DNA of 64,000 bases from Candidatus Bathyarchaeota archaeon (lineage in GTDB: Archaea > Thermoproteota > Bathyarchaeia > Bathyarchaeales > Bathycorpusculaceae), in assembly GCA_963775685.1 (NCBI GenBank), contig CAVZJV010000014.1, positions 2,272,001-2,336,000 on the forward strand, given 5' to 3'. Below are positions 10,223-40,739 of this stretch, piece by piece. The translations under genes and the position numbers were made by a program. Position 1 is the first letter of the stretch; the number at the start of each line of letters is the position of its first letter. The notes beneath the pieces are model-generated. The model saw only the letters and a list, made by a program, of their open reading frames with translations. It had not been told where the DNA came from and did not search any database.

Positions 10223-10328
10223 GGCTGAGTAAGCTCTGAATAAATCTAACTATTGAAGCTGCAATCAAAAAGAGGTTTATGCATTTTCCTCTTTTCTCCT
10301 ATTTCGGTTCCGGAGCCTCAGCAAACCC
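10223..10328. ncRNA. conserved structured element, copy A
   Basis: GGCTGAG-3nt-GCTCTG...AGAGG[TTTATGCATTTT]CCTCT...CGGAGCCTCAGCAAACCC; homologous to 28193-28288 and 40642-40739. Confidence 0.6.
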
Positions 10329-10494
10329 TGATTTTCTCTTAATTCGCTGCGGTAGAGGTTTGCCCACAGTGTACGCTGTATCATTTTTGTGCAGAAACTT
10401 TCCGGGAAATTTTCAGGCGCGCCCATACGTTCGAGCCAAGCGGGTCCATGGATTTAACATTTTCTGCCTAATTGGATTTTCGAGGAACGTATTT

Positions 10495-10592
10495 CAGATT
10501 TTTCTAACGGTAGCTACACGTCCGTTCGGCATGTCCGTCATTTGCAACTCTATCGTACCGCCTGGGGGGAGAGGTTCAGAAATTCAGCTATT
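10495..10592 (-). pseudogene. 5'-truncated AbrB-like gene remnant, paralog of 11222-11389
   Basis: IAEFLNLSP/GGTIELQM...RVATVRKI* parallels IVEFLNLHPGDTLEWTM...RTAKVRKA*. The flank tttaacatttt?ctgcctaa is shared. Confidence 0.5.
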
Positions 10593-10598
10593 TAATGG

Positions 10599-10619
10599 AC
10601 TGTTTCAGTTTTGTTTCAG
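10599..10619 (+). promoter_or_regulatory. tandem-repeat operator-like site
   Basis: actgtttcagttttgtttcag, identical to the reverse complement of 33366-33386; just upstream of TATA-like TTTATATAA. Confidence 0.65.
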
Positions 10620-10670
10620 GTAATTTATATAAGTAAATATTAGTATATTATAATGTGGTGATGAAAGAAA

Positions 10671-10988
10671 ATGTCAACTGCAAAAATCGCAATTGTCCTC
10701 GCCGCAATAGCCACAATAACACTCGCAATCCTTGGAATCGCAGCAGCATCGCAGATAGCTCAAAATCAAATCTACTCTAGCACACAGGCAGCCCCAAACA
10801 ACGTAGCACCAAACCAAGGTTTCTGGGGATGGTTAGGCAACTGCTTTGGTTTTTGGGCAAATCAAACACCTAACAACCAATACATAGTTCCGCCAGTCTC
10901 CGCAACCAACACTACAGCACCTGCACCTTACCAACCATATCAAGGCGGCTACGGATACGGCTATGGACCCTGCTGGGCAGGCTGGTAA
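10671..10988 (+). CDS. small secreted protein with GFWGWxGNCFG and YGYGPCW motifs
   Basis: Signal peptide; clear paralog at 33015-33314. Confidence 0.8.
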   Translation: MSTAKIAIVLAAIATITLAILGIAAASQIAQNQIYSSTQAAPNNVAPNQGFWGWLGNCFGFWANQTPNNQYIVPPVSATNTTAPAPYQPYQGGYGYGYGPCWAGW

Positions 10989-11221
10989 ACAATAAGTCCT
11001 GCTCAGACAATAGTCCTTTGTTTTCTAAAGTTTTTTTAATAACCCTAAGTTATACGCGGCAATCTCCTTTAACGATATTAGTTAAAGCTCTGTATTCATT
11101 GATTGGTCGTGAGGACTTTTAACCCAATATTTTCCAAAAATTTTTAACGCCCGTGCTTGCAACCCTACCTTTTGCACGGGTTTAACATTTCTGCCTAAGT
11201 GGATTTTTGTTAGAATGTCTT

Positions 11222-11389
11222 TTAGGCTTTTCTGACTTTGGCTGTGCGTTCGTTTCCTTCGGTGTCCATGGTCCATTCGAGGGTGTCGCCTGGGTGTAAA
11301 TTCAAAAATTCAACTATTCCCTCAGGTACTGTAGCTCTCAGCGACTTCGATTTGGGTCGGGCTATCGATGTTTTTGATTGAAGTGGCAT
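11222..11389 (-). CDS. AbrB/SpoVT-family DNA-binding protein (55 aa, not in ORF track)
   Basis: MPLQSKTSIARPKSKSLRATVPEGIVEFLNLHPGDTLEW..., an AbrB-type SLRxTVP...LxxGDxLEW pattern. Confidence 0.75.
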   Translation of the reverse strand: MPLQSKTSIARPKSKSLRATVPEGIVEFLNLHPGDTLEWTMDTEGNERTAKVRKA

Positions 11390-11484
11390 GTGTATTTTAT
11401 GGTTTAGGCGCTATTTATTTATACCTATGTGTTGGCAGAAGAGTTTATATATAGTTTCGCACATTTTACGATATGTGAACCAAA

Positions 11485-11710
11485 ATGGCAACACAAATCT
11501 TGACCCCAAAACAACGGAGCGAAAAGATAGCCTCCGAAGACATCGTTCAAATCAATCCCCGAGTTTTCGTCAAATCCCAAACAAGCCACGCGGCTATTCA
11601 GTGACGTGGGTCGGCAAAGTTGGAGCTGCGACTGCCCAGATCACCGGTATCGCCAGCTGAAGTTCAAACATATCCACGCCGTTGAGTCCCAATTTGCGCA
11701 GGTTCCATCT
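11485..11710 (+). pseudogene. SWIM zinc-finger gene remnant
   Basis: Frameshifted reading includes SCDCPDHRYRQLKFKHIHAVE (SWIM CxC...CKH with Cys to Phe). Confidence 0.5.
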
Positions 11711-11718
11711 AAACCGAC

Positions 11719-11937
11719 ATGGCCATATCCCCTGGGGCTTTGGGAGGCACAGAAATGAACTCTTGCCCCAACAGCGGCGGGGCAGATCCGAAGGCATTGG
11801 GAATAGAGCAGGTCAAATCCATGGGCGACAACTGCGCCGTCCTCGTCACCAAATACAAATGCAAAGAATGTGAATGCGAATTCCGCGAATACATGGTCAC
11901 ACACTGGCATCTCGAAGTCACCCAGCATGACCGATAG
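11719..11937 (+). CDS. small zinc-ribbon protein
   Basis: CPNS...YKCKECECEF. A second Zn-ribbon remnant (CPEC...CQTC) follows at about 11950-12120. Confidence 0.45.
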   Translation: MAISPGALGGTEMNSCPNSGGADPKALGIEQVKSMGDNCAVLVTKYKCKECECEFREYMVTHWHLEVTQHDR

Positions 11938-12198
11938 AGCAGTTGTTTATGGAGGCGCCGGTTGACGTGTCCCGAATGCGGAGCCCTAAATTCCAAGTTT
12001 CTCGGATTCACAGACTTAGGCAGCCTGCGGATTGTCCAATTCAAGTGCCAAACCTGCAAATGCATTTTTTCCGTTAAGACTCAAACAGAAACCAAGGTCT
12101 CGGAGCATGGACGTCGGGCTTAAGGCCCAAACATGCAACCCGCCTAGGGACAATGCATACATAAACAGCTATGTCACAGGCGGGAGGGCTTTAGGTAT

Positions 12199-12348
12199 AT
12201 GACCAATCAACTTGAGATACTTCTGAGCGATCTGACACCCGAGGCGCAAGCCAGAGTAAAGAATTTCCTTAAAATCAAAGATGCCGAAGAAGCAAATCTC
12301 GACGTCTTTCCGCTGTTTGTTCTGCCCAAGCCCGATCAATCATGGTAA
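12199..12348 (+). CDS. small hypothetical protein (49 aa)
   Basis: MTNQLEILLSDLTPEAQARVKNFL...; GGGAGG upstream. Confidence 0.45.
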   Translation: MTNQLEILLSDLTPEAQARVKNFLKIKDAEEANLDVFPLFVLPKPDQSW

Positions 12349-12388
12349 ACACTTTAGACGAGTAAAAAAAGAGGAACGGATGTCCAAG

Positions 12389-12700
12389 CTACTCAATGGT
12401 TATTTTGAATTTGGCAGGCACTATTCCGACTGCTCTGCGAACATATAGGACCTTTCCCGCAAGTTTGGCAGCATCGACTATGGTCAAGAACTGATTACCC
12501 GGGCCACCTGAGCTAGCCAACATCATTCCAACAGCATTCTGGTCAAAATCACCCATGGATCCCGCGGAAAGCATAAGATTTGTACCTGACGTATTATTCT
12601 CAAAAACAATCTTCAAAACTGCGTTCGAAGTAGTTTGCACCGGTATTCCTGAGACAAGGTATTTGCCGTTTGCGCCGACCGTGCCGGTTATTATTAACAT
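12389..12700 (-). CDS. hypothetical beta-rich protein
   Basis: 103-aa ORF with AGGAG upstream. Confidence 0.55.
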   Translation of the reverse strand: MLIITGTVGANGKYLVSGIPVQTTSNAVLKIVFENNTSGTNLMLSAGSMGDFDQNAVGMMLASSGGPGNQFLTIVDAAKLAGKVLYVRRAVGIVPAKFKITIE

Positions 12701-13007
12701 TTCTTTCTGTCTCCTGATACTTATAGAGAAAAACTCTTGCTAATAAAATTCACTGAAAGCGGGCACCAAGGTTTTTCGGGGTGGGGCGCAACTTTTTGAA
12801 AGCCTTCGCCATTTTGTCCCCCATAGAGAGAGAGCGGCCAACGCTTGCCTGAAAAACGCTATTCCTCACAATAAATAAAAAATAAATAATATATTTTGAT
12901 TTGACTCTATCTATCCCCCTCAAACCGTTGAAGGCCTTCAAATCGCCGGAAAATCCGCTCGTGTACTTGGTGTATAAAGTAAACCAGAAAAGGGCGGGGA
13001 TTGTCCG

Positions 13008-13140
13008 TGGCGGGCGGGGAGGGATTTGAACCCTCGACCCCCAACTTAGGAGGCTGGTGCTCTATCCGTGAAGATATCAAAACAAAGCGGGACCCCCCTC
13101 TTTGTAGAGAACTCTCCAATCCGTACTGAGCTACTCGCCC
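13008..13140 (-). tRNA. tRNA-Arg(CCT) with a 55-nt insertion/intron in the D-loop, CCA encoded
   Basis: GGGCGAG acceptor, GCTC/GAGC D-stem, CCAGC-CTCCTAA-GTTGG anticodon arm, GAGGG-TTCAAAT-CCCTC T-arm. Insertion at about 13070-13124. Confidence 0.88.
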
Positions 13141-13625
13141 TCTCCGAGACTGATGAAGCTACAAAGAGTAGACCTAAAAAGGTTTTTGGAGGTAGAGAAA
13201 AAAGAGGCTGAATTAATAGAAAGGCAAAGAACAAGAGGGCGAATTAATTCTATCCCTCAAGAGCTCAAAGTAGGAGTGCCAGTATTGATAGTTTGGGGAA
13301 ATTTCAAGAAAATAGAAACAGAAGTAAGATTCAAAAAAGAGGCTGAAAACGAAAATAATCTTCAATCTACAATTGACCAAAATTCAGCTCAGTCCAAGGA
13401 AAAAACTTAGCGATAACAAGAAAAAGCATTTCTTTTGTAAAGAAGTTGCCAAGAAATGAATTACTCTATGTCTGCACAAGAGTAATCAGAAAGCCGATTT
13501 TGACACCCCAATACTCAAAAACTGCGACGTAACAAGTCGACAAAATGGTAACTTAGTCCAAGCATGTTTATTTGTAATACACAAGTTTTTTATGGTTTAA
13601 CTCCCATCTCGCGTCAGGCGTAAAA

Positions 13626-14231
13626 ATGTTTAGATTTGCACAAGTACCGTCACCATCAAACAAGATGAAAAACAAAGCGAAAGCAAGCCAAATAATACCA
13701 GTTGTGATACTAATCGTGTCAATCGTCGGAGCGTTATATTTTACTGGTTTTTTAAATGACTTCACTGATACCTCTATTTCCGATGGAGGTAAACTTACTC
13801 CAACAAGAGACATAGAAGGAACATGGAAAACAGCAATTTCCACAAAATTTACAATCGCCACAGACTATGAAAACTTTGGTCAGCTCACAAATGCGGGCTC
13901 AGAAGACCGCACAATGACGTGGACCATAACGGGAACAAGCGACGAGCACACCGTAATTGTCGACATACAGTTTACTTATTCAAATAGACAATTAGTTCAA
14001 GGGGCCGGTTATACCCCTGATGTTTCACCAATGCAGCTAACAGGCACAATAAATGGAACACAGTTGACTCTAACTAAAGGAAACGTTGGTCCGATTGAGC
14101 AAATAGGGTTAGTTGGTGTATTTACTTTTACTTCAAATCAGATGGAAGGCACATGGCATGACCATTGGAATGGCGTATACGAACAAAACGTCTATACAAC
14201 AACCAATGCCCTAAAACTAATAAAACAATAA
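13626..14231 (+). CDS. membrane-anchored or secreted hypothetical protein
   Basis: N-terminal TM followed by a Thr/Gly-rich beta domain. Confidence 0.7.
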   Translation: MFRFAQVPSPSNKMKNKAKASQIIPVVILIVSIVGALYFTGFLNDFTDTSISDGGKLTPTRDIEGTWKTAISTKFTIATDYENFGQLTNAGSEDRTMTWTITGTSDEHTVIVDIQFTYSNRQLVQGAGYTPDVSPMQLTGTINGTQLTLTKGNVGPIEQIGLVGVFTFTSNQMEGTWHDHWNGVYEQNVYTTTNALKLIKQ

Positions 14232-14324
14232 TCTGCGAACCACAATTTTGAAAAAAATAATGCCCAATCTGTTAAGCAAAAACACCTCAGGTAAAATCGT
14301 TATCCAAAATCAATTTTCAAGTAA

Positions 14325-14621
14325 TTGGCTTATAACTCATTCGAACCTTTTACAGCGGGCAAGGGTCTAAGTATTCACAAAGCCCGAATGCAAGTTAGTA
14401 ATATGATTTATTATTTAGAGAATAATTTGGGGAATGAAATTACCTCTATGGTAAATTCACCTTATTTTCTTTTGTATGTTCCAGTGATTGTTCTGGAAGG
14501 AAATTTATTTGTTTATGAGAATGACCAATTAAGTAAAGCGGATGGTTTATTCTATCACTTCTCTCATTTCCAAGCGACTTACATAATTGACATAGTTAAA
14601 TCAACAATCTTTGAGAAATAA
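14325..14621 (+). pseudogene. gene fragment
   Basis: YVPVIVLEGNLF looks like the C-terminal part of a larger protein; no good start. Confidence 0.3.
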
Positions 14622-14815
14622 ATAGATAACTTTGAACAAATAATGATTAATCTTAAAATCAAATAAAATATCAACATAACGAAATAGAAATCAATGGTAT
14701 CAGTTGAGTCTCAAAAAGCTTTTTACTAGAAAGCAACGTCACCACTATTACTGAATTATTGAAGTGAGTGAATGTATGAGTAGAATGCAAAAGAGTAAGA
14801 AATTACTAAGCCCTA

Positions 14816-14842
14816 AGGCTGGTGCTCTATCCGTACTGAGCT
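14816..14842 (-). repeat. intron-less fragment of tRNA-Arg D-arm and anticodon stem
   Basis: AGCTCAGTACGGATAGAGCACCAGCCT equals the joined exons of the tRNA at 13008-13140. Confidence 0.8.
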
Positions 14843-15144
14843 TCGAGGAAACGCTCTTTGGCTTTCTTACTTGCCCAAATTCCCGTCCAGCAACCTTGCA
14901 AGTTGGTTGGGTGTTATAACTCTAACGTTCAGGTTAGCGAGCAATTCAGAATATTTTTTCAAATAACGGTCGGCTGTTACAATAACTGTTTGCAAGTCTA
15001 GTTTATGATAGTGCTCAACCTTTTGGTAGTTCTCTTGCCTTTGTTTCTATCTATGTTCTTGATAGCGATTGAGCATTTATGGAGAAAACAACTTCTAAAA
15101 GCTTAACTTTACAGCAACAATAAGAACTCGGATTAAACAGAATT

Positions 15145-15519
15145 TTAAACTATCTTTATGTTTATGTCATCTATCGAACCGAATTTTTGATCACAAGTCA
15201 ACAAAAGCTCGTTGTTGGCAAGTGAAATTCCAGCTATAAGCAAATTGTTCTCGTTGACCATCTTTCCAGCTTTGCCAAGCTTCTCAAAAAGTGCAGCGGC
15301 TTCTCTTGCAGAAGCTCTATCGAAAGGACAAATCGTTACCACTGACAAAAACTTTTCCGCCATTTGCCTTTTTAGTTCGGTTTTATGTTTAAGTAATTCG
15401 TACTCTGTTATGGTTGTTGTTTTGATTTCGTCTTTCGCAGCGAGTTCTTTTATTATGGCAACAACTTTTTCGTCGCCTGCTAAGAAATCGATTATAACAC
15501 TTGTGTCTATGAAGGTCAT
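15145..15519 (-). CDS. vapC: VapC PIN-domain toxin
   Basis: FIDTSVIIDF, ITEYEL, LLIAG, LLTCD motifs. Confidence 0.9.
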   Translation of the reverse strand: MTFIDTSVIIDFLAGDEKVVAIIKELAAKDEIKTTTITEYELLKHKTELKRQMAEKFLSVVTICPFDRASAREAAALFEKLGKAGKMVNENNLLIAGISLANNELLLTCDQKFGSIDDINIKIV

Positions 15520-15523
15520 GGGC

Positions 15524-15760
15524 TCACTTTAGTGGTCTTCCGTAGTTGGCTTCTCTTTCAGCCGTTATTTTCGACTTCAAGTGCTCAAGCTTTTCTTTTT
15601 CGTCTTTAAGAGCTCCTGCAAAGCTCATGATATCTTTTTTTCCTTCCGTCGGACACAGATTTTCTTTTATAACTTGAGAGAAACTCTTTTTGCCCTTCCT
15701 TTCTATCAGAAGTTCATAGACTTCGTTTGAAACTGAAATCTGCCGTGCCATCTTATGCAT
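15524..15760 (-). CDS. vapB: VapB-family antitoxin (DUF217-like)
   Basis: RQISVSNEVYELL...KSFSQVI; directly upstream of the PIN gene. Confidence 0.82.
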   Translation of the reverse strand: MHKMARQISVSNEVYELLIERKGKKSFSQVIKENLCPTEGKKDIMSFAGALKDEKEKLEHLKSKITAEREANYGRPLK

Positions 15761-16395
15761 TCACCTATACATAATATATAGATATCTGTAAATAAACAAA
15801 TAAACTTTCTTGGCTTAAACCTGAAAGTAGCCGAATGCCAAAGACAACAAAAGGCGGTTACTGAAGGACCCTAAATCCAATTAATACGCTTTCCTTAAGG
15901 GCACTATTTACGAGAAGTCTTATAATGAAAATCATTCCTATAATTGAGCAATGGATAGCACAAGCAAAGGTTCTCGCTACTTCTTGTTGTTATCTTGGCA
16001 GTTTCAAGGCTAATTATGGTTAAATTTGCATCTGCTAAGTCAATACCTCTGTGCTGGAATTCACTCTAAAGTTTGTTGACCATCCATATGATGTACCACC
16101 AACCTGTTAAAATAACCCCTACACTGGTAAGAGTATCGAATAATTTCACTGGAATAAGAAGCGATGGGAGCAACACCTAAACCGTCACCAATCTGAAACA
16201 TACACTTTTTCAACTCCAACATCTAAATCTCTAGAATTCCTTATGCTTTTATTCTTGTTCTTGCTTGTAGCTATACCCTTGATAGCGGCTTGTTAGCAAG
16301 CGTTCGTTTTTTGCAAAGTCAAGTAGACAAGGCTTGTTAGTCGAGTTCTACATTCAAAAGTCAAATTTTCAGTTATATTTGACTTTAATTATTTT

Positions 16396-16779
16396 TCACT
16401 TGGGGCAGTGCTGGACGCCTATTGTTGCAGCTTGTTTTAGTAGACGAACAAGTTCAAGCTGTACCTTGATAAAATCGCCTACTTCAACATGGCGGACATT
16501 CTCGTTCTGTTGTGAGGATCCTCTACTCTTCAACATTTCCGAATCGAGACTTGCACCCATAGCAAACTCTAAATCCATATGCTCCTGAAAATGGCTAATC
16601 CACGCAAAGTCTTTCTCGCCCAGTTTATATGTTATCTTACCATGCTTTACCATTTCAACGGTTTCTGGAACGGTGTTTTTGATAAGTAAGCGTAGGTTTT
16701 GGAGAGTTTCTTTTTGGGTTGGATTTAGACTGCCTAAAACTTCGTCGAATGTTAATTGTTTTTCCTGTGCTTTTGGCAT
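16396..16779 (-). CDS. DUF1801/YdhG-like protein
   Basis: LRLLIKNTVPETVE...HMDLEFAMGASL...RHV pattern. Confidence 0.65.
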   Translation of the reverse strand: MPKAQEKQLTFDEVLGSLNPTQKETLQNLRLLIKNTVPETVEMVKHGKITYKLGEKDFAWISHFQEHMDLEFAMGASLDSEMLKSRGSSQQNENVRHVEVGDFIKVQLELVRLLKQAATIGVQHCPK

Positions 16780-17152
16780 AATAGACTTTTGGTATGGGAC
16801 TTTTTATTAGTTATACTTTTACGCTGTCTTGAGATTCTTTTTGCTTTAGGAAGACTATTAGGCTTATTTAAAGCGTTAACGAGGGCAGAATGGGCTATAG
16901 AAAAAATTTGCAAAAAGTTTGAGCCGCCGGGTTGAATCTAAACCCCAAGGCAAACACCGTCAATCCAATAGCTCTTACCAATTTGCCTCCTTGATGTAAT
17001 CTCGGCTGCGCTTTAGCAGTGACTTAGCGACTAATCTGCGTGTTAGCCGTGAAGAATGTTCCTCAACCGGCACACAATAAATTCTTTTCATTGAATAAAT
17101 TGTTATGTTGGCTCAAGTCGAGCCAACTATTCGTTATAAAAGCTTATGAAAT

Positions 17153-18001
17153 TTACTGAGCCGCTTCTTTTTTGTTTCTGCTGAGGTTGGAGAGTTCCTT
17201 TTTTCCCTCCGCAAGCGTAATCGGTATTTGTCCAATCAAACCCTGACTTTTTAAATCGGAAAACAGGTTAACGATGGCAGGGGGCTCTAAACCCGACGAT
17301 TGCAAAAGCGACGCATCCTGCAAAACTTCCCGTGTTGCACCACCGCCCAGCATCAAGCCACGGCTGATGACGATTATTCGATCCGCTAATTCAGGCAGTG
17401 CTTCCACGTCATGTGTGGAAACAATTATGGTTGTGCCTGCCTTATTGAGTTCGTTTAGTGTGTCTATCAAGCCGCGTCGAGAGACAAGATCCAAGTTCGC
17501 TGTGGGCTCATCCAAAATTAACAACTCAGGTTTGAGCACCAATGCGGTGGCTAGTGAAACCTTCTTCTTCTCGCCAAAACTTAGTCTATGCGGTGGTCGG
17601 CTCTTTAGGTGTTGGATGCCCATTTTGTCAAGTACGTGTTCGCTTCGAGCTTTGATGTCTTCTTCGGGGAGCTTGAGGTTTTTGGGTCCATATTCGATGT
17701 CTTCGATAACGCTTTGAGTAAACAATTGGTCGTCGGGATCTTGAAACACCAAACCTATCCGTGAACGGAATTTTTGGAAGTTTTTGGAGGTTGTTTTTTC
17801 CCCGAACACAGTGATTTCGCCTTTTTGAGGTGTCAACAACCCAGCTATCATTAGAATAAGTGTGGATTTTCCCGAGCCGTTAGGTCCAAGGAGGGCTACT
17901 CTTTCACCTTGTTGTATATCAAGTGATACGCCTTTTATGGCGCTTACTCCTGCGGGATAGATGAACCTGACTTCTTTGACCGAAACGATGGGTTCCGCCA
18001 T
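17153..18001 (-). CDS. cbiO: ECF transporter ATPase (CbiO/NikO)
   Basis: GPNGSGKST, FQDPDDQLF, LSFGEKKK, LDEPT. Start taken at MAEPIV (18001). Confidence 0.92.
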   Translation of the reverse strand: MAEPIVSVKEVRFIYPAGVSAIKGVSLDIQQGERVALLGPNGSGKSTLILMIAGLLTPQKGEITVFGEKTTSKNFQKFRSRIGLVFQDPDDQLFTQSVIEDIEYGPKNLKLPEEDIKARSEHVLDKMGIQHLKSRPPHRLSFGEKKKVSLATALVLKPELLILDEPTANLDLVSRRGLIDTLNELNKAGTTIIVSTHDVEALPELADRIIVISRGLMLGGGATREVLQDASLLQSSGLEPPAIVNLFSDLKSQGLIGQIPITLAEGKKELSNLSRNKKEAAQ

Positions 18002-18011
18002 GGCGTTGCCT

Positions 18012-18824: not shown

Positions 18825-18825
18825 T

Positions 18826-27616: not shown

Positions 27617-28192
27617 GCGGTTCCAAGACGATTATCAACTGCTTCGCGTTATATCCGGTATTATTATCCAGATACATTTTATAAGCGCCCATGATGATGT
27701 ATAGGTATAGATGAAGGCATCTTAAGATAGCATGCCAGCGGGTTACAGGGTCTCCAGAGAAGGCAACGTCCGCGTTAAAACGGCAAGCGACGCCCGATAA
27801 AGAATTTGTTATATAAGCAAACCACCCAGGAAAATCCTTATCATAACTGCGGCAGCCTCAATCTGTTTCTGATTCAACTAAGAAACCTCACCAATATGAA
27901 AAAAAGAAAAAGGTTGAATCATCGTTTTTCTGAAAATCGATACCAACACTTTCGGCATAGGTACCGTTGAATTTCCTTTGAACGAGTATATCTTATGTCG
28001 TCTTTGTATGACTTCTGGCTGCTGCGAACTGGATATTTAGCTACTTTTTCTTCAATGTTTCTTCATCTCCTCGTTGCTTTTTAGTCGATTTTTAAAGAAA
28101 ATGGGGTGGTGCGGGTGATATATCTGCTTTGAACGGGGTTCAAATTAAGCCGGGGTCAATTTAGGACTGGGGGTTAAAAAAATTAATTGCAA

Positions 28193-28288
28193 GGGTTTGC
28201 TGAGGCTCTGGACTTTAGGAGAAAGAGCAAATGCAAAAGCTCTTTTACTATGGCTATTTCGTTAATTGTTGCCGGAGCCTTCTCAGCC
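28193..28288. ncRNA. conserved structured element, copy B (oriented with minus-strand paralog 2)
   Basis: Reverse complement GGCTGAGAAGGCTCCGG...AGAGC[TTTTGCATTT]GCTCT...CCAGAGCCTCAGCAAACCC. Confidence 0.6.
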
Positions 28289-28355
28289 CTTGTCTTGTTT
28301 TCCACTGTTTTTTTAAGACTAAAAAAGGGGAGAGATTGTTTTGCTTGATATTTGT

Positions 28356-31283
28356 TTATGGTCGTTTCCTGAGCACTAAGATTATGACAACGCCAATTAC
28401 AGCTACAAAGACAAATAGCCCTGCAATTGCCGGTAGGAAGTATTGATCAGACATAGACGGCGCCAGAGTAGGCGAGGGCGATAAAGTCGGATGCTCCTCC
28501 ATTACATTAAACGCCGCAGTTGCAGATGATGGCCAGTAAGCGTTGGTGCCTGCAAAAGTAGCAATAACATTGTATGTGCCTGAAATGTCTGGTTGCCACA
28601 CTAGATTATATGCGCCAGTGTAGTCGGTTGTTGCTGTTCCAATACTTCTAAAGTTTCCGTTTGCATCAACAACATTTATTGTAACATCAACGCCAATAAA
28701 GTTGCTAGGAAGCGCCTTCTGCTGATAGACATAGCCCATCCAGTCTTTCATGATAGAGTCAGCTGCAACTGGAACACCCGCTGGAAAGTCTGCTGCCTGC
28801 TGGCTCTGCTTTGTACCTGCCGAAATATCCGTCACTGCGCCATGTATCACCACTGCCTGTCCTGAGGCTGCCGATAGGTCTGGAGCTGAAACTGTCATTG
28901 CACTGGGTCCTTTGCCGATGCTGTAGATGTTGTTATCCAAGCCGTTCATGCATGTCAAATAGCCGTCTGCAACAGCCCAAGCACTACCAGGAGTAGACCA
29001 CTCACTGGGATAGCCAGAAAGCTGCCAAATCAACTCGCCAGTAGATGCGTTAAGAGCAGTATATGTAGTGCCCTTGTAGAGTGGATTTGGTATGGTGTGT
29101 TCATTTGTTGCCAAGTAGATTACACCGCCAGCAATCGATTGAATAAACGTTGGATAATGCCCATATGAGAGAGATAGGCCAGCGTTTGTGCTGTTGCCTT
29201 CGCCGCCGTTGCCCCATGTCCACTGCAGTTGGCCTGTTACGATATTGTATGCGTAGCATGTGCCTGAGAATCCGCTGGTGTAGAGGTTGCCGTAAGCTGG
29301 AACACTTAGCATAGTGTTGCCCACACCGTAGTAGTCAAAGTCTGCTTGACGCGGAGTTGTGTATAGGAGGTTGCCATTGTCCAAACTGTAGGCTACCCAA
29401 TTGAGTGTTTCCTCATAGTTAAAGTAGAAGACACGGTTCTGGAAATCGACTCCGACGCTATTTGCGTAGGTGATGTTGCCTTGTACGGGGTCGTATGTTT
29501 TCATCCAAAGTATCGAGCCGACAGCTCCGCGTGAGGCGTTGAGGTTAACAGTGAACATCGTGTAAGGAAGCTGCAAGCCGCCATTGCTATTTCCCTTATA
29601 TCCAACGGGTAGTGAGCCGTTTCTGCAGAGCATCACATCGCCATCAGCTAGCTGCGATCACCGATACAGGATTTGATCCCTTAGGTGGCAATGTTACTTC
29701 TCCTGTTGTTGTGCTGTAGGTTGGTGCTAGGGGCATTGTGTTTAGCCAGGGTAGTGAATAGTTCCAGTCGTATGTTGTTATGCCTTGACCGGCAACACCA
29801 ACTCCGCCGCGTTGCCCTCCAATAGTTGTAATGTTAATCGGAATGTCTGCATTGACTGTCGATTGTGGATACCATAAGAAACTGAGACGGTTGATCCACG
29901 TGGGTGAAGTTGGCCTGTAGCTGAGCCGGAGTATTTGGATTAGATGGAATAGTTGAAATTATTACTCAGGTTGCTTGCGTTAATAACAGATGGGTTAAAG
30001 CTTCCACGGCCAGTGTAGGGGTTGACATCGTACTGCCAGAGTTTGCTAGAGTTCCACTCAGACAAATACCATTGCGGATTATTGTTTGTGCCAGCGTTTC
30101 TTATAACATAACGTATTTGCTCACCAGTTGGACCAGACACCGAGGTGCCTGAAGGAACACCAGTTACGTTAAACAACTGCTCGCCTGTGTATGCATCATA
30201 AGCTCTGCCAAAGTTGGATGTGAACAGTATTGGCGGGAAAGTTCCATGTTGATCACCATTCCAAAGATTGTAGATATAGCCAAATGAAAGCGGTGCCACA
30301 TCGGTGCGAGACCAAAGAACTTGCCCTGTACGAAGATCAACAGCCGTGGTTGGTCCACTGCTGGGACCTGTGAAGGAAATTACTTCGGTGTAGAAGAGAA
30401 TGCCGCTGATTATTATTGGATTGCTGAATCTTGGTTCGTATGAGCTGCCTTCGAAGTATGAGACTCCTTGAACTGCACCGTTGGGGTTAGTGCCGCCCTC
30501 GACAAATGCGTTTCCTCCAACAACTCCTCCAAACTGAAGTGGACGTGTCCACATCACGTGAGAGGTCAAAGGTCCTATGCCGTCGGGCACGTAGAGCCTG
30601 TTGCTGGTATAGCCGCTTAGAACGGGTGATCCTGAACCTAGCCAGTCAGAGGAGACTGTCCACCAGTCTGTGCCTTCGCCGTAAATTGGGTGTGTCCAGT
30701 ACTGTGTTGGAAGCGGAGAGCTGCCTAAGGGCCCAGGTATTGGATCTTGCTGAACAGTAAGAGTTGTAGATGCCGTGCTACCTAAGTAAGAGTCGCCTAT
30801 CAGTATTGAGTTTTCGTAGCCGTTGCCGTTCTCGCCGTAGACTTGTCCTGGGTATGTGAAGTTGAAAGTGTATGTGCCGACTTGGTCTGGAGCGAATCTG
30901 GTAAATTGTGAGGATGTGGTGTCTGTTATGGTGGCAAAGGTTTGTGATGTGGTTGTTCCGTCAGGGGCTGTGATTGTGAGCTGGTAGTTTTTGAATCTGT
31001 AAAAGTTTGCTGTCAATGCTGCACTAGTTGTGGAAGCATTCGTGCCAATGGCGGCAGTAGATCCGCCTGCTACTCCGTAAACGGGGTCAAGCCACATGTA
31101 AACGTGTACTTCTTGACCGACTCCTACGGGGTCAGGTGCTGCAACGATGTATGCATAGGTAGGAATATTCCATCCAGGGGTATGCGCATCAGTATAGGGT
31201 ATTAAAGCTATTGAAGCTGTCATTGAAACTGTTAAAATTGCTGCAATCAAAATAGCTAAGCTTTTGTTTTTTAGATTTAGCAT
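28356..31283 (-). CDS. PQQ-like beta-propeller surface protein (paralog 2), frameshifts at about 29640-29960
   Basis: PDPVGVGQ, LPTQYWTHPI and AVDLRTGQVLW in the 5' ORF; IATFAGT, TM and LRKRP in the 3' ORF. Confidence 0.82.
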
Positions 31284-32695: not shown

Positions 32696-32704
32696 GTTGA
32701 AACA

Positions 32705-32869: not shown

Positions 32870-33014
32870 AGCGGTAAGTTAGAAAGAGCAGATCTTTGTT
32901 GTATTGTAGATGATTGTTTTTCCCAAGTCTGCCTTTTTTGGAGAGCAAATTAAATTAAAAAACAAATTTACTTTAAAAAAGGGGAGTTCAAAGAGCAAGA
33001 GGCACAAGTTTGAG

Positions 33015-33314: not shown

Positions 33315-33365
33315 TTTGTTTTATCACCATATTACACTATGGCTACAGCGTCTTATGGAAGTTGT

Positions 33366-33386
33366 CTGAAACAAAACTGAAACAGT
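33366..33386 (-). promoter_or_regulatory. tandem-repeat operator-like site
   Basis: Reverse complement is identical to 10599-10619. Confidence 0.65.
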
Positions 33387-33643
33387 TTCCATACTTCCAA
33401 GTTCTTGAGATTTGCTCATGAATTCTTCCTTCTATCAAAAATTTATTGATTATTTGCCTTTTTTTGTCCATGCCACGCATCTAGTCTGAATTCATCTTGT
33501 TTTCTGACATTAAATACTTACCTAAAAAATGAGGGGTGCGGGGTGAAACCTCCTCACAACTGAATGAGGTCAAATAATCCCTCTGGAACTACTGTAAGCT
33601 GTTTGAGGAAAAAATTTTAATCTTAAAGCAACCCATAATAGGC

Positions 33644-34117
33644 ATGAATAAAGAATCGAATTCTGTAATTACTAAAATAGTAAATGCTGAATCCTTTGAT
33701 GATTTTTTGGGTTTAATTGATAAACTTGCGGATTATGAGAATTTGGCTCCTCCGGATGATGAAGCTAAACAAAGATTGCGAAGGGATTGCTTGGGTGAAC
33801 ACCCCAAGTATCAAGCGGTTATTGGAAAAGTAGGCGATAAATCTGTCTCTTACTGCATTTATTTTTTTACTTATTCGAGTTTTCTTGCTTTGCCGACGCT
33901 TTTTCTTGAGGATATTTTTGTACTTGAAGAATATCGAAGACAAGGTGTAGGCAAAAAAATGTTCACCGTCCTAAAAGTAATCGCTAAACACGAAGGATGC
34001 GGCAGGATTGAGTTTGCCGTTTTGAAATGGAATAAATCAGCGCAAGAATTCTATGAAAAAAACAAAGCTAAAGGCTTGGAATGGTTTTTGTATCGTTTGG
34101 TCAAAGAAGACTTTTAG
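33644..34117 (+). CDS. GNAT N-acetyltransferase (SSAT-like)
   Basis: LFLEDIFVLEEYRRQGVG and WNKSAQEFY. Confidence 0.88.
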   Translation: MNKESNSVITKIVNAESFDDFLGLIDKLADYENLAPPDDEAKQRLRRDCLGEHPKYQAVIGKVGDKSVSYCIYFFTYSSFLALPTLFLEDIFVLEEYRRQGVGKKMFTVLKVIAKHEGCGRIEFAVLKWNKSAQEFYEKNKAKGLEWFLYRLVKEDF

Positions 34118-34373
34118 GGTAATAAGGAACTTTTTTCCAATAGAGTTATATTTTTTTGTGTTTTAGGTAAGGGATACTTCACAAGAAAAGAAGCAGATCT
34201 ACGATTATTAACCAACTGCTTTTCTGGTTTCTTAGTATCTTTTCATCCCTGAAAATGTCAATAATGTGGAGTCAGAAGCGCCTTTTCTTCTCATACTGCC
34301 TTAATAGAGACTTGAGCTTCAGGGTGTGATATATTCAAAAAAAGAAAGAAACAACTGTTAAGACAGTTGCCTA

Positions 34374-34655
34374 TTACATTTTATGCTCTTTGAGAACGGT
34401 CATCGGTGACGTACTAGTATCGGCGATGCCCGGCATGGCTCGTAAGATCTCTCCGACGAAGTGAAGACTGTTTTCATTGCTATCGGCTTTGAAGAAAATC
34501 ACGAAATCCCAGTATCCGTACAAGCTCCATGAGGACTCGATCTTTATTCCTTTCATTGGTTCGGTAGGCATCTTTTTAAATGCTTCCCAGAACTCGCCGC
34601 CCTTTCCAGAGATCGTTTTGATTAAAACTTGATATTTATTCGTGCTTTTTTCCAA
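34374..34655 (-). CDS. GYD/Lrp-AsnC ligand-binding-like domain protein
   Basis: SLYGYWDFV...ILRAMPGIADTST. Confidence 0.6.
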   Translation of the reverse strand: MEKSTNKYQVLIKTISGKGGEFWEAFKKMPTEPMKGIKIESSWSLYGYWDFVIFFKADSNENSLHFVGEILRAMPGIADTSTSPMTVLKEHKM

Positions 34656-35033
34656 TTAAAACACCGCTCTTATTTTTGTTAAGACGAACCTTTAAGATTC
34701 TGTGGCTGCATTGTCACAACCACAACTGCGTACCGATCCAACGTCAACTTCTCCCATTCACAGACCCTTTTGTAAACTCCTTCGCGTTTCGTTATAGACC
34801 TCTACTTGTTCGTTTCCGACTTTGTTGTATTCTTAATATGGCTAAGTGAAAGAAAATAGGCTGAATTCTAAACTGTTAATTCGTCATTTTATTAAACAAA
34901 ACTTCTAAATTATTTAATAAAAATAGTTTATTTTCTTTTTTTTAACAAGCTATTTATAGTTATACGGGTTGAAGACCCAATTGGGTTGCCAAGGGGCAAC
35001 CAACATAGGTAGCTTTTTGTCAACCCCAAAATA

Positions 35034-37669
35034 TTGGAGAAGAAAAAAATGTTTAAATTAGAAAACAAAACTGCAGCTATTGTAATAACTCTGTTGTTGA
35101 CACTGTCAATTGCAGGCGCAATTGCTGTCCCAAAAGCAAATGCAGCTAATTTCCCCGGAACCACAATTCCAACTTGGGCATATCTTCAGGTTGTACCTGA
35201 CCAAGTTGGAGTAGGTCAAAACGTACTGATGGTAATGTGGATTGACAAACCTCCACCAACAGCCAACGGCATATTAGGCGACAGATGGGTAAACATGACA
35301 CTTAAAATAACAGACCCCGACGGAACCGTTCAAACTTCTAGGACCTTTCAAGTCGGACGACGCAGGTGGCTACACAACCAACTATGTTCCCACTAAACTT
35401 GGCGACTATTCTGCAATCTTTATCTTCCCAGGCGAAACCCTCACAGGCTCTCTTGGAAATGACGGCTTCCCATTTATCAATTCAGCAGTAGGCGATGTCT
35501 ACGGCTCCTCAACCAGCAACGCAGTTCACTTTACTGTAAGCAACGAACCATACTCCACGATTCCTGAGAATCCTCTTCCAACAGATTATTGGCAGAACCC
35601 AGTTGAAGCTTTTAACCACTACTGGTCAACAATTGCAGGCAACTGGCTCGGAATTTCAGCCGTCGAATTTGGAAACACAGGAAACTATAACTTTGCGGGC
35701 AACTTCAACCCCTACACCCAGGCACCATTAACCGGACACGTAGTATGGGCACAACCGCTTGTCCCTGGATCTCCAGGAGGTCAACTGGGCGGAGAATTCG
35801 GTGGCACCGCAGAAAGCAACTATTACTCAGGCTTCCAATACCAACCTAAATTCTGTCCAATCATTATGAACGGGATACTCTACTACCAAGCAATGCCAAA
35901 CTTCAACTCGCTAACTCAGGGTTTTGTCGCTTTAGATCTGAGAACGGGCGAAACCCTTTGGACCAAGAACTACAATAATTACTTCTCGAACGGCTCGCAA
36001 GACGTTTTGCTATGCGGACAAATATACGTATACAAAACAATGAACACATATGGCGGCCAGTCATACCTTTGGGCAACCAGAACCACTGCTGGAGTAACTT
36101 ACCTTGATGTCTTTGATGGGGCGACTGGTAACTATGACTTCAGCATACAAGGAGGCGGAGGCGGAGGATCGTTTGGAAGGCAAAACTTCCAAGGGGAAGA
36201 CGGTAGTCTACTGCAATTATACCTGAATTCCTCTAGAGTTGACGGTGTAACACGACAATCTCTGACTCTATGGAACTCTAGCCACTGCGTAAACCCAACC
36301 GACAGCCAATTCTTTAACTTCCAACAAAACGGAAACTATCAATACAACACAGGAATAATGTGGTCAATACTATTGCCAAACCAAACTTCAACTGGCGATC
36401 CAATGCCCAGCTGGATCCTTGACGACGCTGGTCACTCAACCTGGGACCCAGACAAATACATTTTCATCATACAAGGAGGTACAGGTATGGTACCTACATA
36501 CGGATGGAACCCTGGCTGGCTGATGGAAGCAGCATACGACATGAAAGATGGAACACAGCTCTGGATAAAGAACCAAACTGAAACACCATTCGCCGCCACA
36601 ATGATGATGACAGGAGCATCAAACAGTATCTACGCCGAATACACAAAGGAAGCAATGACTTTCACAGGCTACAGCACAAAAACTGGAGAAAAAGTCTGGG
36701 GTCCAACTACGCCTCTAGTTAATCCATTAGCTTACTATGACCAAACAAGTGCAGTCTGTGCATACGGAAAACTATATACATGGACATTCGGCGGGGAAGT
36801 CTACTGCTTTGATATGGCAGATGGTCGTAAGGTCTGGAACTGGAGTACTGGAGACGCTGGAGCAAACACACCTTATGGGGTCAACCCACTTTGGATCATC
36901 GGTAACTACGAAGCAACTGTTGCAGATGGAATACTCTATGTAGAAACAGGCCACGATTATGGACCGCCGCTATTTAGTGGCGCGAAGATATATGCACTAA
37001 ACGCAACAACAGGCGAGCCAATTTGGGATATACTGAACTTTGCCTAGTGGCTCGTGCCTACCAGTTACATACGGCTATATGCTCTCGTTCAATGCATACG
37101 ACAACCAAATATACTGCTATGGTAAAGGACTGACCCAAACCACCGTTACAACTTCACCCGTGATAAATAATAACGCTCAGATACAGATTAGCGGTACCGT
37201 CAACGACCAGTCACCAGGACAAACCTGCTTAGGAATACCCGTAGCAGGCACGCCAGCTATTGACGACCAATACATGAGCAGATGGATGGAATACCTCTAT
37301 ATGCAATCGCCAAAGCCAACAAACGCAACAGGCGTTCCAGTTACTCTATCCTACGTCGACCCCAACAACAACTACTACGAAATCGGAACCACAACATCCG
37401 ACGTAAACGGTCAATACACATACAATTTCAAACCCGACATACCTGGAACTTATGCCATTACAGCAACATTCGGAGGATCTAACTCATACTTTGCATCGTC
37501 AGCACAAACTCATGTCAATTTTGATACACCAGCAGGAGCTACCCCTACATCCACACCACAACCCGCATCCATGGTTGATTTATATTTTGTACCAGGTATC
37601 ATCGGCATTATCATTGCAATCATAGTTGTCGGCGCAGTCATAATAATAGCTCTAAGAAAGCGACCATAA
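35034..37669 (+). CDS. PQQ-like beta-propeller surface protein (paralog 3), frameshifts near 35340 and 37045
   Basis: PDQVGVGQ, LPTDYWQNPV, ALDLRTGETLW, TATFGGS, TM and LRKRP across three frames. Confidence 0.82.
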
Positions 37670-37981
37670 AGCCAAAAAATAGGAATTATTTCCTTCCTTT
37701 TTTTATTCTGTAAAGCCTAAATTTTACTGGCATGGGATCCATTTAAAAGTAGTAACGCTCCGTAGAAAACTGTTAAGCTAACAAAAATATTAGTTTTGCC
37801 TCATTTTTACTAATTTTTCTTAACCAATTTACTCTAAATAATTACTATTTTATGTCACCAATGCCCACTTGCCACTCACCATTATAAGCTGGTACTATAA
37901 GAGACGGATTGGGCATGGAAACAAAAAGAAACATGTGTATTTTGTTTTCTGTCCTAAAAAAATAACGGAAGAAAAAGAAAA

Positions 37982-40587
37982 ATGCAAAAAATAAAATCTT
38001 TGATAGTGCTGCTTCTTTTCACTATTATAATAGTACCCATGACAATGCAGATATCCCAAATAGCGCCCGCAGCCGCAGCAGATGACATGCCAGTCTACTT
38101 AAAAGTATATGCTGAACCAAACCCTGTAGGCGTGGGTCAAACAGTATACATCAGTCTCTTCTTCACTAAACCCATACCCGTCGTCGGCGTAGCTGGCGGC
38201 GCAAGCCAATATATAGGGCTATCACTTAACATTGTAAACCCCGATGGAACCAACACCACTCTTGGACCCTACGCAAGTGACACAACTGGCGGAGTAGGGG
38301 GGATCCAATTCGTCCCTGCAACCATAGGAGACTACTCTGTGCAAGCATTCTACAAAGGACAAACGATTTCCAACAATGCTGGAACCCTCAGCTATAATAT
38401 ACTTCCCACACAAAGCGATACCATAACCTTCACTGTGCAGACAGATCAAATCTCCAACGTTCCACTAACGCCACTTCCAACCGAATACTGGTCACGTCCC
38501 ATCTACGCTACAAACTATCTATGGGCACAATTAGGTGGCAACTGGTGGGGCTTAGGAAAACCCTCTTTCACTGATACCGGAGGATACGACGCATCTGGCA
38601 ACAACTTTAATCCTTACTCCCAAGCGCCAAACTCAGCCCACATTATGTGGGTTAAACCAACAGCTTTTGGCGGACAAGTAGGAAATCCAATTAGCGGCGA
38701 CCAAGAAAGTCAATATACAGCACCTCAATTCTATACAGACAATTCGAGCCCATAATACTCAACGGTATCATTTTCTACAAACTATACCCCAACGTACCGA
38801 CCACCGTAACTAGCTCAGGAGGAACCCCCGGTTGGGCCGCAGTGGATCTTCGCACAGGCGAAACACTATGGACCAAAGATACCAACGATACACTAGTTTT
38901 TGGCTGGAACATGCAGTTCCACACCATTCAAGAATACGGGACGCAAGCATTCCTAGTGGCAATTGGTCCAAGCGTTGGCAGCGGCTTTAACGCATACAAC
39001 GTTTGGTCCCTGTACGACCCAATGACAGGATACTTCATCGCCAACATAACCAGCGTACCCAGCACAACGGCTTCAGGATTAGTTGAAATCGACGACGACA
39101 GTACACAGGGAGCGGTCTACATATACAGCACTAACGGGACAACAGGCGCTCAAAGCCTAACCATGTGGAACTCGACCAGATGTTTAATGTCGAGTCTTTC
39201 ATCAAGCACTATACGTCCATCAGGCAACATCAACTACACGCGAGGGTATCAATGGTCAGTTCCGATTCCAACAAACATCACTGTGAACGGAGTTACAACC
39301 GACATATACAATCCAGCAAATGCTCTGAAAAACCCCGCCCTTAACATTGCCGGAAGGACAAACGAGGTTATCCTAATGCGAGCATACGGGGAAACTATGG
39401 ATACATTTGCCTCAGAATTTGGTGAAGATTCCGAAATCGAATGTGGATTTAACGCAAAAACAGGCGCACTTCTATGGGGTCCAGTAAACAGAACATTGCC
39501 AAGATACCATGAAATCAGCGTCCTCGCAGCAGGCGAAGGCTACTATGTTGAACAAGACAAAGACACAAACATAGCATACGTCTATAACCTGAAAACTGGC
39601 GTAGCAGTTGGTGGACCAATCCAACTTCAAGGAAGTGCTTTGAGCACTCTTTCGCGAGGCGGAGCAATCGCATACGGTAAAGCTTACATTTGGGACTTCG
39701 GAGGATACGTAAACGCAATCGATCTAAAAACAGGAACCCTAAGCTGGACGTACACACCCCGACCTGCAGGATACAATACTCCCTATGGCATCTATCCTTT
39801 CTGGCACTTTGGATCGCACAGCATAGCAGACGGCAAACTATTCCTATCTGAAGCCCGCATGTATGACCCCCCAATGTTCTCTGATGCACATAAACTAGCG
39901 ATAAACTGCACAGACGGATCGCTCGTCTGGAGTGGACTTGGTTTCTATGGACGTGAACCAAGCGCAATCGCAGACGGCTACCTTGTTGCATGGAACAGCT
40001 ACGACTGCCAAATCTACACATACGGCAAAGGACCAACATTAACAACAGCAAACGTTCAACAAAACGTTGTGCAATACGGTAGCAGCGTGCTAATAACAGG
40101 CACTGTTATGGACAAGTCTACAGGAACAACAGACGACGATAGAGCAGCGCGCTTCCCAAGTGGAGTGCCGGCTGTTTCTGACAATAGTCAAACTGCTTGG
40201 ATGGCGTACGTCTACATGCAGCAGCCAAAACCAGATAACGCAACTGGTGTGCAAGTTACCATAGGTGTCGTTGATTCAAACGACAACTATAGAGAAATCG
40301 GAACCACCTTAACTGACGCCACAGGATTCTACAGCTTACAATGGAAGCCAGACATAGACGGCAAATACACAGTCTACGCCAAATTCGCCGGCAGCGAATC
40401 CTACTGGCCTTCAGAATCAACAACCGCATTCGCAGTTGACGCAGCCTCAATAACCAATAATCCAACCCCCATTCCAGTTCGATCTGTAGCTGACCAATAC
40501 TTCATTCCAGCCATCTCAGGCTTATTCGTCGCAATCATCGTTATCGGCGCAGTATTAGCACTTTTGTTGCTAAGAAAGCGATCTTAA
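37982..40587 (+). CDS. PQQ-like beta-propeller surface protein (paralog 4), frameshift near 38720
   Basis: PNPVGVGQ, LPTEYWSRPI, VDLRTGETLW, AKFAGS, TM and LRKRS. Confidence 0.82.
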
Positions 40588-40641
40588 GAAAACAAAACAA
40601 AACACACCCCCCCTTTTTAGTTTAAAATGTAAGAGAAATGT

Positions 40642-40739
40642 GGCTGAGAATGCTCTGGTAAGAACTAACGGGTGACTTACTCACCGACGCATTTGCATTT
40701 GCGTTCTTTCTTTCCTTGCCCCAGAGCCTCAGCAAACCC
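40642..40739. ncRNA. conserved structured element, copy C
   Basis: GGCTGAGAATGCTCTGG...GGTGA[CTTAC]TCACC GACGC[ATTTGCATTT]GCGTT...CCAGAGCCTCAGCAAACCC. Confidence 0.6.

Follow-up and report, generated by a model that had tools for sequence, protein, structure and literature searches.

Introduction

The small stem-loop RNA-OUT of IS10 pairs through its exposed loop with the ribosome-binding site (RBS) and the start codon of its target, blocks translation, and acts across the copies of the element. Plant microRNA genes arose by inverted duplication of their target genes. The attC recombination sites of integrons carry the consensus sequences RYYYAAC (R'') and GTTRRRY (R') at their two ends. Excerpts of PMC9438474 describe bacterial base-pairing small RNAs (sRNAs) that are released from the 3' ends of mRNAs, with a flagellar example from Campylobacter in excerpts of PMC11187230; in Staphylococcus aureus, the 3' untranslated region (UTR) of icaR pairs with its own Shine-Dalgarno (SD) region, according to excerpts of PMC3868564. 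Here, we describe a repeated structured element in a 64,000-nt stretch of a Bathyarchaeota genome (the window; G000:C14:2272001-2336000, where G000 is a genome of 3.06 Mb, 96.9% complete). The element lies behind genes of a surface-protein family, and its interior reads as the reverse complement of that same family's 5' end. We know of no structured RNA family specific to these archaea, and no published link of Bathyarchaeia to such an element was found among the top-ranked results of a literature search.

On balance, we lean towards reading the element as a small structured antisense-RNA module that blocks the translation of sister genes. If this is true, the element represents a structured RNA family that has hundreds of copies, whose fold is backed by paired changes, and which carries its own testable target prediction. 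It would also suggest a way in which an archaeon might select among some 50 interchangeable surface-protein genes, and would provide an example, in a prokaryote, of a regulator that originated as an inverted duplicate of its own target.

The Interior of the Element Mirrors the Start Region of the Family

The reverse complement of the element core reads TTAGGAGAAAGAGCAA-ATG-CAAAAGC, and the consensus of 43 family starts in G000 reads TTAGGAGAAAGAAAA-ATG-CAAAA, with 18 of the 43 beginning ATGCAAAA. The sequence-only reading, which had first drawn attention to the element, dealt with its fold and did not include this key property, the reverse complementarity between its interior and the 5' end of the family itself. 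When mirrored, whole elements align to family 5' ends from approximately -20 to +44 (49 identities in 66 columns in one example), with an identity of about 75% over some 65 nt. The mirrored stretch spans the SD sequence, the ATG, and about 14 codons, which encode the Lys-rich N-region and the first part of the signal-peptide core. Among the copies of the window (numbered as in Table 1), the interior of copy 2 (28214-28268) is the reverse complement of positions -16 to +40 of the family gene C14:1936522, which has no element of its own, and the core of copy 3 (40692-40717) is that of positions -17 to +7 of the family gene C14:793778.

The mirror was found both in the genus of the window (g1) and in g16, a genus of another family of the same order. 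In local alignments with mirrored whole elements, the 43 family 5' ends of G000 scored 27.0 on average and 59 at most, versus 20.2 and 37 for a composition-matched control; the corresponding values in the g16 genome G052 (2.15 Mb) were 34.7 and 59 versus 22.9 and 50. A search of G052 with the 23-nt mirrored core, allowing three mismatches, returned eight matches versus none in controls: four elements (on the mirror strand), three family starts, and one orphan intergenic site. This orphan site (G052:C1:1446450-1446472; L149 71-93) differs from the mirrored core by one mismatch and lies upstream of an HD-domain gene, with no family open reading frame (ORF) behind it. When mirrored cores were compared to G000 by blastn-short, the two best matches outside elements were both family starts. 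Outside elements, matches of at least 28 bits comprised 4 family starts and 8 other sites, and those of at least 24 bits comprised 13 and 157, respectively, on a scale where the family accounts for only about 49 start sites in the genome.

Judged by predicted pairing, the complementarity of the element to the SD/start regions of the family exceeds that to other genes: the median duplex energy was -13.7 kcal/mol for the 43 family starts and -10.4 kcal/mol for 300 other SD-bearing starts (Mann-Whitney p = 3.6e-8). The mirror differs between g1 and g16 in step with their start regions. Family starts in g16 read TTGAAGGAATGAAAAA-ATG-AAAAAA, and the g16 element core, UUUUUUCAUUUUUUCAUUCCUUCAA, mirrors them. 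In a test in which equal-length segments were swapped between the genera, cognate pairs reached -13.6 (g1) and -15.6 kcal/mol (g16), versus -8.6 and -10.9 kcal/mol for non-cognate pairs (paired Wilcoxon p = 2.4e-4 and 4.8e-7).

A Conserved Fold Is Predicted to Present the Anti-Start Sequences

Single-sequence folds of 25 copies mostly followed one plan. P1, a 3-nt bulge, and P2 form a closing rod, inside which lie the variable hairpin P3, the hairpin P4, whose loop reads UUUUGCAUUU, and the unpaired tract UCUUUUCUCC. We then considered 53 copies from 30 genomes in an alignment fitted to R1, a covariance model built from the three window copies. Pairing was retained in 91.2% of the cells versus 82.0% in shuffles, and both-sided changes occurred in 17 of 21 pairs versus 10.0 +/- 1.5 in shuffles, none of 500 shuffles reaching 17. 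When the partner was slid by 1-3 columns in the same alignment, pairing held in only 33-52% of the cells. An independent alignment of 14 G052 copies, made by MAFFT and folded by RNAalifold, recovered P1 and P2, and 8 of the 22 pairs in its whole fold show compensatory changes. It also added an outer helix, P0, in which the 5' flank and GGG pair with CCC and the 3' flank across an AAA bulge; the GGG/CCC pairs hold in 42-53 of 52-53 rows of the larger set. The complete clamp comprises P0, the AAA bulge, P1 (GCUGAG/CUCAGC), the 3-nt bulge, and P2. The paired changes support the closing helices P0, P1, and P2 and the hairpin P4.

The sequence-only reading had proposed a fold under selection, and both the paired changes among the 53 copies and the independent g16 alignment support it. 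The common features that it listed (GCTGAG/CTCAGC, the 3-nt bulge, GCTCYG/CRGAGC, TAAC, and a 3' AAACCC) recur in all three window copies, as does the TGCATTT loop, which is flanked by AGAGG/CCTCT, AGAGC/GCTCT, or ACGCA/TGCGT. Conservation of AAACCC is explained by the P0 helix together with its AAA bulge.

Compared with the gene sequence, the element has 2 additional nt on each side of the anti-ATG, and it is these paired insertions that give rise to the P4 stem. Both the consensus fold and most single-sequence folds predict that the P4 loop contains the anti-ATG and that the anti-SD falls within the unpaired tract; loop and tract are unpaired in most single-sequence folds.

Pairs of the G-U and U-G type outnumber A-C and C-A mismatches overall (60 versus 31) and within P4 (34 versus 12), and this excess favours folding on the strand of the host gene. 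The earlier statement that G-U pairs do not settle the strand is thus only partly upheld: the excess settles the question in part, in favour of the host gene's strand. It is also one of several points that make activity of the opposite strand very unlikely. On that strand, the mirror carries a complete SD-spacer-ATG and could act as a decoy family 5' end that titrates a regulator or encodes a short peptide. However, no short ORF was found to be conserved on either strand (in the three window copies, the frame behind the mirror ATG runs for 5, 12, and at least 21 codons), the family promoter region with its motif is not part of the mirror, and sequence conservation is absent from the flanks on that side.

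With its bulged bases, its place at gene 3' ends, and a fold kept while the sequence varies, this imperfect palindrome also recalls an attC-like integron recombination site, a possibility raised in the sequence-only reading. We give this idea almost no credence. The ends read GGGCTGAG... and ...CTCAGCAAACCC and contain neither an R'' nor an R' core site, the copies are dispersed over the genome with no cassette arrays, and no integron integrase passed the cut-off, the best TIGR02249 match scoring 45 bits versus the 265 required.

Three further structural candidates were rejected. An additional helix between GGAGAA in the 5' flank and the pyrimidine tract gave -7.36 kcal/mol with the copy's own flank, -7.46 with the flanks of others, and -7.12 with reversed flanks. 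The archaeal bulge-helix-bulge splicing motif requires exactly 4 bp between its two 3-nt bulges, one on each strand; the bulges AAA and NAG do lie on opposite strands, but 5-6 bp (P1) stand between them. In a kink-turn, a 3-nt bulge is followed by tandem sheared G-A pairs, whereas P2, judged from sequence only, starts after the bulge with the Watson-Crick pairs G-C and C-G.

The Element Follows Genes of One Surface-Protein Family

The proteins encoded by the host genes are paralogs of about 900 amino acids (aa) with a signal peptide, a Thr/Pro-rich linker, and a transmembrane (TM) helix ending in (L)RKRP. There are approximately 49-50 members in G000. Pfam searches on these proteins returned only Ig-like and PQQ-like matches, below the cut-offs, and NCBIfam gave no name for them. 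Of 29 copies in G000, 15 sit 47-74 nt behind long ORFs (433-963 aa), one more stands behind a 200-aa ORF that has the same tail, and another four come after frameshifted remnants. In a set of 30 genomes, 39 of 45 copies are located within 92 nt of a family C-terminus, on the gene's strand and 47-92 nt from the stop.

The host stop is followed by an A-rich spacer, the C-rich/T6/AGT motif CCCTTTTTTAGT, and then the element, with the end of the T-run 20-33 nt ahead of the element's GGG in 38 of 48 copies. The same motif is present behind at least 10 family genes with no element or only a degenerate one, and, by eye, the 3' flanks in G030 and G027 also show the C-rich/T-run with no element. The motif therefore belongs to the gene, probably as its terminator, and the element is an optional addition.

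The three copies reported in the sequence-only reading are all confirmed at the positions given there, and a fourth, partial copy that it did not include was detected here. Its description of an element after every locus is correct for the three window loci, but, genome-wide, only 18 of the 43 family genes with a clear start have a downstream element.

Some element-free family genes carry other short conserved stretches past the T-run, reading GATGTGAGGCTAAGGAAATTCC... and GGGCTCAGTAAAGCTATCGAG... (G000:C14:53782 (+) and 749211 (-); C7:30121 (+) and C14:1052109 (-)). These may be other 3'-flank modules or much-diverged relatives of the element.

Copy Number, Range, and Database Searches

A 16-nt 3' motif, with up to two mismatches, matched the 3.06-Mb genome 21 times, versus once for the reversed control, well above what chance would yield. 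We obtained 28 matches in G000 with nhmmer (E < 1e-3) and 25 with R1 (E <= 0.01); in all, the genome has 25-29 copies. A search of 61 genomes with R1, under stricter filters, detected the element in 28 of 36 other g1 species, in both g16 species, and in none of 22 genomes of 19 other genera. The protein family, searched with one and the same query, was found in 36 of 36, 2 of 2, and 0 of 22, respectively. Element and protein family thus have the same range, being restricted to g1 and g16 among the 21 genera searched. The search of related genomes and neighbouring genes that the sequence-only reading had called for agrees with its association of the element with this gene family.

The number of model matches per genome (0-21, versus 1-52 family genes) would also be expected of a selfish or neutral repeat, akin to miniature inverted-repeat transposable elements (MITEs) or repetitive extragenic palindromes (REPs), that derived from an inverted 5' fragment and whose clamp is its terminal inverted repeat. 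The ends of the element do form an inverted repeat, and orthologous copies decay quickly. We nevertheless regard this origin as improbable, since the core changes in step with cognate starts in two genera, the internal stems show paired changes, and place and orientation are fixed, almost only behind one gene family. In addition, no Y1 transposase was matched in this 96.9% complete genome (other transposase families were not searched), and no target-site duplication was noticed when the flanks were inspected by eye.

No match to Rfam 15 was obtained in the window at the gathering score. At E <= 1, the five copy-bearing loci gave two weak matches, both off the element: DUF805b (18.8 versus 35.6 bits) and tmRNA (11.4 versus 47 bits). 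The sequence-only reading could place the element in no known family and suggested, among other options, a new non-coding RNA or 3'-UTR motif, and the absence of an Rfam match shows that a new non-coding RNA or 3'-flank element was the right direction.

Among viral contigs, a single match was found, in the 26,980-bp IMG/VR contig L087. Its family gene, T-run, and element (a shorter variant, at 1433-1519) stand in the usual arrangement, and the contig may represent cellular sequence that was misfiled or the flank of a provirus. With a gene context as elsewhere, this match is uninformative on mobility.

Transcription and Candidate Targets

A search of RNA runs returned small shares only, amounting to at most 0.10 of words. 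Four metatranscriptome contig sets (at least 85% likeness) cover the coding region of relatives; these contigs carry neither strand nor ends and could stem from DNA. Subject to the same limit, the depths in the four sets were 5.8, 6.5, 23.1, and 0 in bin 10146-10266; 0, 0, 0.83, and 0 in bin 10267-10387; and 2.0, 29.7, 0, and 0 in bin 7242-7362, which contains the partial copy. TATA-like 8-mers cluster 19-25 nt ahead of the GGG and are compatible with a start near it; no purine stretch resembling a B recognition element (BRE) precedes the element, unlike in tRNA promoters.

The antisense reading builds on the observed mirror homology and its family specificity, the parallel change of mirror and start regions between two genera, the fold, and the placement. 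In this model, an inverted copy of the family 5' end (SD, ATG, and about 14 first codons) lies between the strands of the clamp. Read on the host strand, the RNA would show the anti-start CAU in the P4 loop and present the anti-SD UCUCC in the unpaired pyrimidine tract. It could be produced by read-through past the C-rich/T6 run of the host or from a start about 26 nt beyond that run. The RNA would then pair in the cell with the translation start regions of paralogous mRNAs, so that ribosome binding would be blocked, and sister genes would be repressed in trans rather than the host's own message.

Since the element stands on the same strand directly behind its host gene, it could alternatively act in cis, as a 3' UTR element that pairs with the start of the same mRNA and throttles or stores the message, for which the icaR 3' UTR and its own SD region provide a bacterial precedent (excerpts of PMC3868564). 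We attach only a small probability to this. The host's own 5' end is a poor partner, with a median rank of 29.5 of 43 by alignment, and 10 of 15 hosts rank 23rd or worse of 43 for their own start by duplex energy; the T-run, moreover, intervenes between gene and element.

In G000, genes without an element match the elements better than genes with one (-14.8 versus -12.0 kcal/mol, p = 0.008), and alignment scores for the same split gave p of about 0.01. Starts with ATGCAAAA were found in 15 of 25 genes without an element versus 3 of 18 with one (p = 0.006), in comparisons made without control for gene relatedness. The best partners of window copy 2 and of other copies are element-free genes. 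One may speculate, tentatively, that the roughly 50 surface paralogs form an RNA-run hierarchy, in which 'sender' modules are aimed at the starts of module-free 'targets' and the starts of the senders have drifted out of reach. The outcome would be ranked or mutually exclusive coat expression, and new inverted copies of target 5' ends would renew the modules, in a manner resembling the origin of plant microRNA genes. This scenario is possible, though doubtful.

A role of the element as an insulator of the next tandem gene was considered and rejected, because three of the four family genes located 125-514 nt downstream are among the poorest matches (Table 1).

Turnover of Copies and Possible Exchange at the DNA Level

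Several observations weigh against the antisense module. A T6-7 run, probably the host terminator, lies between stop and element, and it is from sequence that we infer transcription of the element on the host strand. The complementarity is interrupted, and the predicted energies are modest. An initial complementarity test on 12 starts of element-bearing genes placed 2 of 12 in the top 2% of controls, which is no clear excess; this test was superseded by the full set of 43 starts. All statistical tests treat related copies as independent. In G003, where 12 of 16 family genes have an element, ATGCAAA starts were found in 5 of the 12 element-bearing genes and in 2 of 3 element-free ones, with one start missing from the set, so that the split seen in G000 is not clearly repeated.

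The turnover of copies belongs to the same set of objections. For the gene 7497-10163, the ortholog in G014 lacks the element, that in G015 has a decayed one, and that in G034 retains only a P1 hairpin. It is missing behind 25 of the 43 family genes in G000, and 8 of 36 g1 species have no match, one of them with 24 family genes. Selection on any single copy must therefore be weak. Furthermore, similarity between elements (67-92% identity) is uncoupled from that between host C-termini (40-73%; Mantel r = -0.09, n = 15), and some copies are mosaic. These mosaics and the uncoupling point to exchange at the DNA level.

Such exchange is central to the main rival explanation, in which inversion or gene conversion uses the inverted repeat of family 5' ends as its substrate, so that the 5' ends of paralogs are disconnected or exchanged, resulting in phase or antigenic variation. 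It would explain the mosaics, such as C14:72973, whose P4 combines a 5' arm of one subtype with a 3' arm of another. It would also suit the partial copies that begin at or near the P4 loop (7260-7306 in the window and C14:655578), the uncoupled similarity, the recombination of spacers and elements at the T-run, and the presence of several tyrosine recombinase genes in the genome. However, recombination leaves the excess of G-U over A-C and the paired changes of the clamp unexplained. The identity to gene 5' ends is only about 75% over some 65 nt, no recombinase gene is regularly adjacent, and no inverted arrangement was noticed, although no systematic search was made. We consider a DNA-level role unlikely and retain the antisense module as the better explanation.

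Features of the Window

The coordinates of the elements, their host genes, and other features are listed in Table 1. The partial copy shares about 39 nt identical to the 3' half of copy 1; it lies directly 3' of a tRNA-like/TCACYCGCA module and about 210 nt upstream of the ATG of the copy 1 host gene.

Table 1. Positions of the element copies and of other features in the window, unless another contig is given. R1: covariance model built from the three window copies.
Feature	Position	Strand	Remarks
Element copy 1	10218-10335 (sequence-only reading: 10223-10328)	+	R1, G000:C14:2282218-2282335, 107.5 bits; 59 nt from host stop (10163)
Copy 1, P1 5' strand GCTGAG	10224-10229	+	
Copy 1, bulge TAA	10230-10232	+	P2 5' strand from 10233
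Copy 1, P4 loop	10276-10287	+	anti-ATG CAT at 10282-10284
Copy 1, end of pyrimidine tract, CTCC	10296-10299	+	
Copy 1, P1 3' strand CTCAGC	10317-10322	+	
Copy 1, AAA bulge	10323-10325	+	
Copy 1, P0 CCC	10326-10328	+	
Element copy 2	28186-28293 (sequence-only reading: 28193-28288)	-	R1, 114.2 bits; 67 nt from host stop (28356)
Element copy 3	40637-40746 (sequence-only reading: 40642-40739)	+	R1, 113.5 bits; 54 nt from host stop (40587)
Partial copy, 3' half only	7260-7306	+	pyrimidine tract and 3' strands of P2, P1, and P0; positions 35-104 of the nhmmer model
Host gene of copy 1	7497-10163	+	888/882-aa surface protein; GGAGA 7499-7503, ATG 7515
Host gene of copy 2	28356-31283	-	two ORFs, 29940-31283 and 28356-29636; start near 31277
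Host gene of copy 3	37982-40587	+	two ORFs, 37982-38755 and 38842-40587
Further family gene, broken	35034-37669	+	no element behind
C-rich/T6/AGT motif, consensus CCCTTTTTTAGT	10190-10201	+	between host stop and element
C-rich/T6/AGT motif	40610-40621	+	between host stop and element
C-rich/T6/AGT motif	28318-28329	-	between host stop and element
Family promoter motif	7388-7424	+	
Second repeated module	7190-7250	+	
Second repeated module	28085-28125	-	
FixO/cytochrome c ORF	829-2418	+	
Poor-match downstream family genes	starts C14:51155, C14:821773, C9:3502		

The protein encoded by the host gene of copy 1 has a signal peptide, gives weak matches to Ig-like domains and a PQQ-like propeller, and terminates in a TM helix that ends with LRKRP. 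Of the four family genes in the window, three (the hosts of copies 2 and 3 and the further gene) are split into two or three ORFs instead of one of about 900 aa; these could be pseudogenes, frameshifts, or assembly errors.

A promoter motif of the family, TTGTCGTCAGTG-N5-ACTTGYCA followed by the TATA-like TTTATATA, is present in the window and lies approximately 95-130 nt upstream of many family ATGs in G000. It probably binds a common transcription factor, and its position implies 5' UTRs of about 70 nt.

A second repeated module, represented twice in the window, also occurs at G000:C14:655543, 658632, 796670, 800688, 2268728, and 2174319 and at C5:145310. It is composed of a tRNA-like acceptor/T-arm piece in reverse complement, which differs per copy, followed by GAT(A/G/T)TCACCCGCA, a C-rich stretch, and a T6-7 run, and several of its copies adjoin element copies. 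ARAGORN found no tRNA in the window, including in this module, and Rfam returned only a weak match to the tRNA-like domain of tmRNA. The module could represent att-site remnants of elements that integrate into tRNA genes, or unusual tRNA-like genes.

Finally, one ORF near the start of the window shows strong matches (1e-21 to 9e-33) to FixO, the mono-heme subunit of the cbb3-type cytochrome c oxidase, and to cytochrome c domains, which may be unusual for this archaeal lineage.

Comparison with Known Systems

The proposed antisense module resembles RNA-OUT of IS10 in its loop-started pairing at a start region and in acting across a multicopy element. RNA-OUT is, however, encoded opposite its own target and matches it perfectly, whereas the element is a separate, diverged inverted copy (about 75% identity) that stands behind other members of a cellular gene family, carries a conserved clamp helix, and occurs in an archaeon. 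As in plant microRNA genes, the regulator would have come from an inverted copy of its target, apparently keeping complementarity while gaining a fold of its own; the two differ in domain of life, machinery, and size, and no Dicer-like processing is implied for the element. Integron attC sites, likewise structured sites of about 60-140 nt at gene 3' ends with variable sequence and conserved fold, are set apart from it by their defining core sequences, cassette array, and integrase.

With the bacterial sRNAs from mRNA 3' ends, as excerpts of PMC9438474 and PMC11187230 present them, the element shares the coding strand, a position directly behind a structural gene, and the targeting of other mRNAs by pairing, which is proposed for the element. 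It occupies the coding-strand position behind the stop that typifies this class, with a T6-7 run in between. The sRNAs in these excerpts are single loci with short seeds, whereas the element, which is known from sequence alone, has at least 20 copies per genome and a mirror of about 65 nt. The closest parallel for the pairing itself is the icaR 3' region, where, in excerpts of PMC3868564, an anti-SD pyrimidine motif pairs with the SD region and hinders the initiation complex. In icaR, a 7-nt motif acts on its own mRNA, whereas the match of the element extends over the ATG and early codons and finds a poor partner in the start of its own host.

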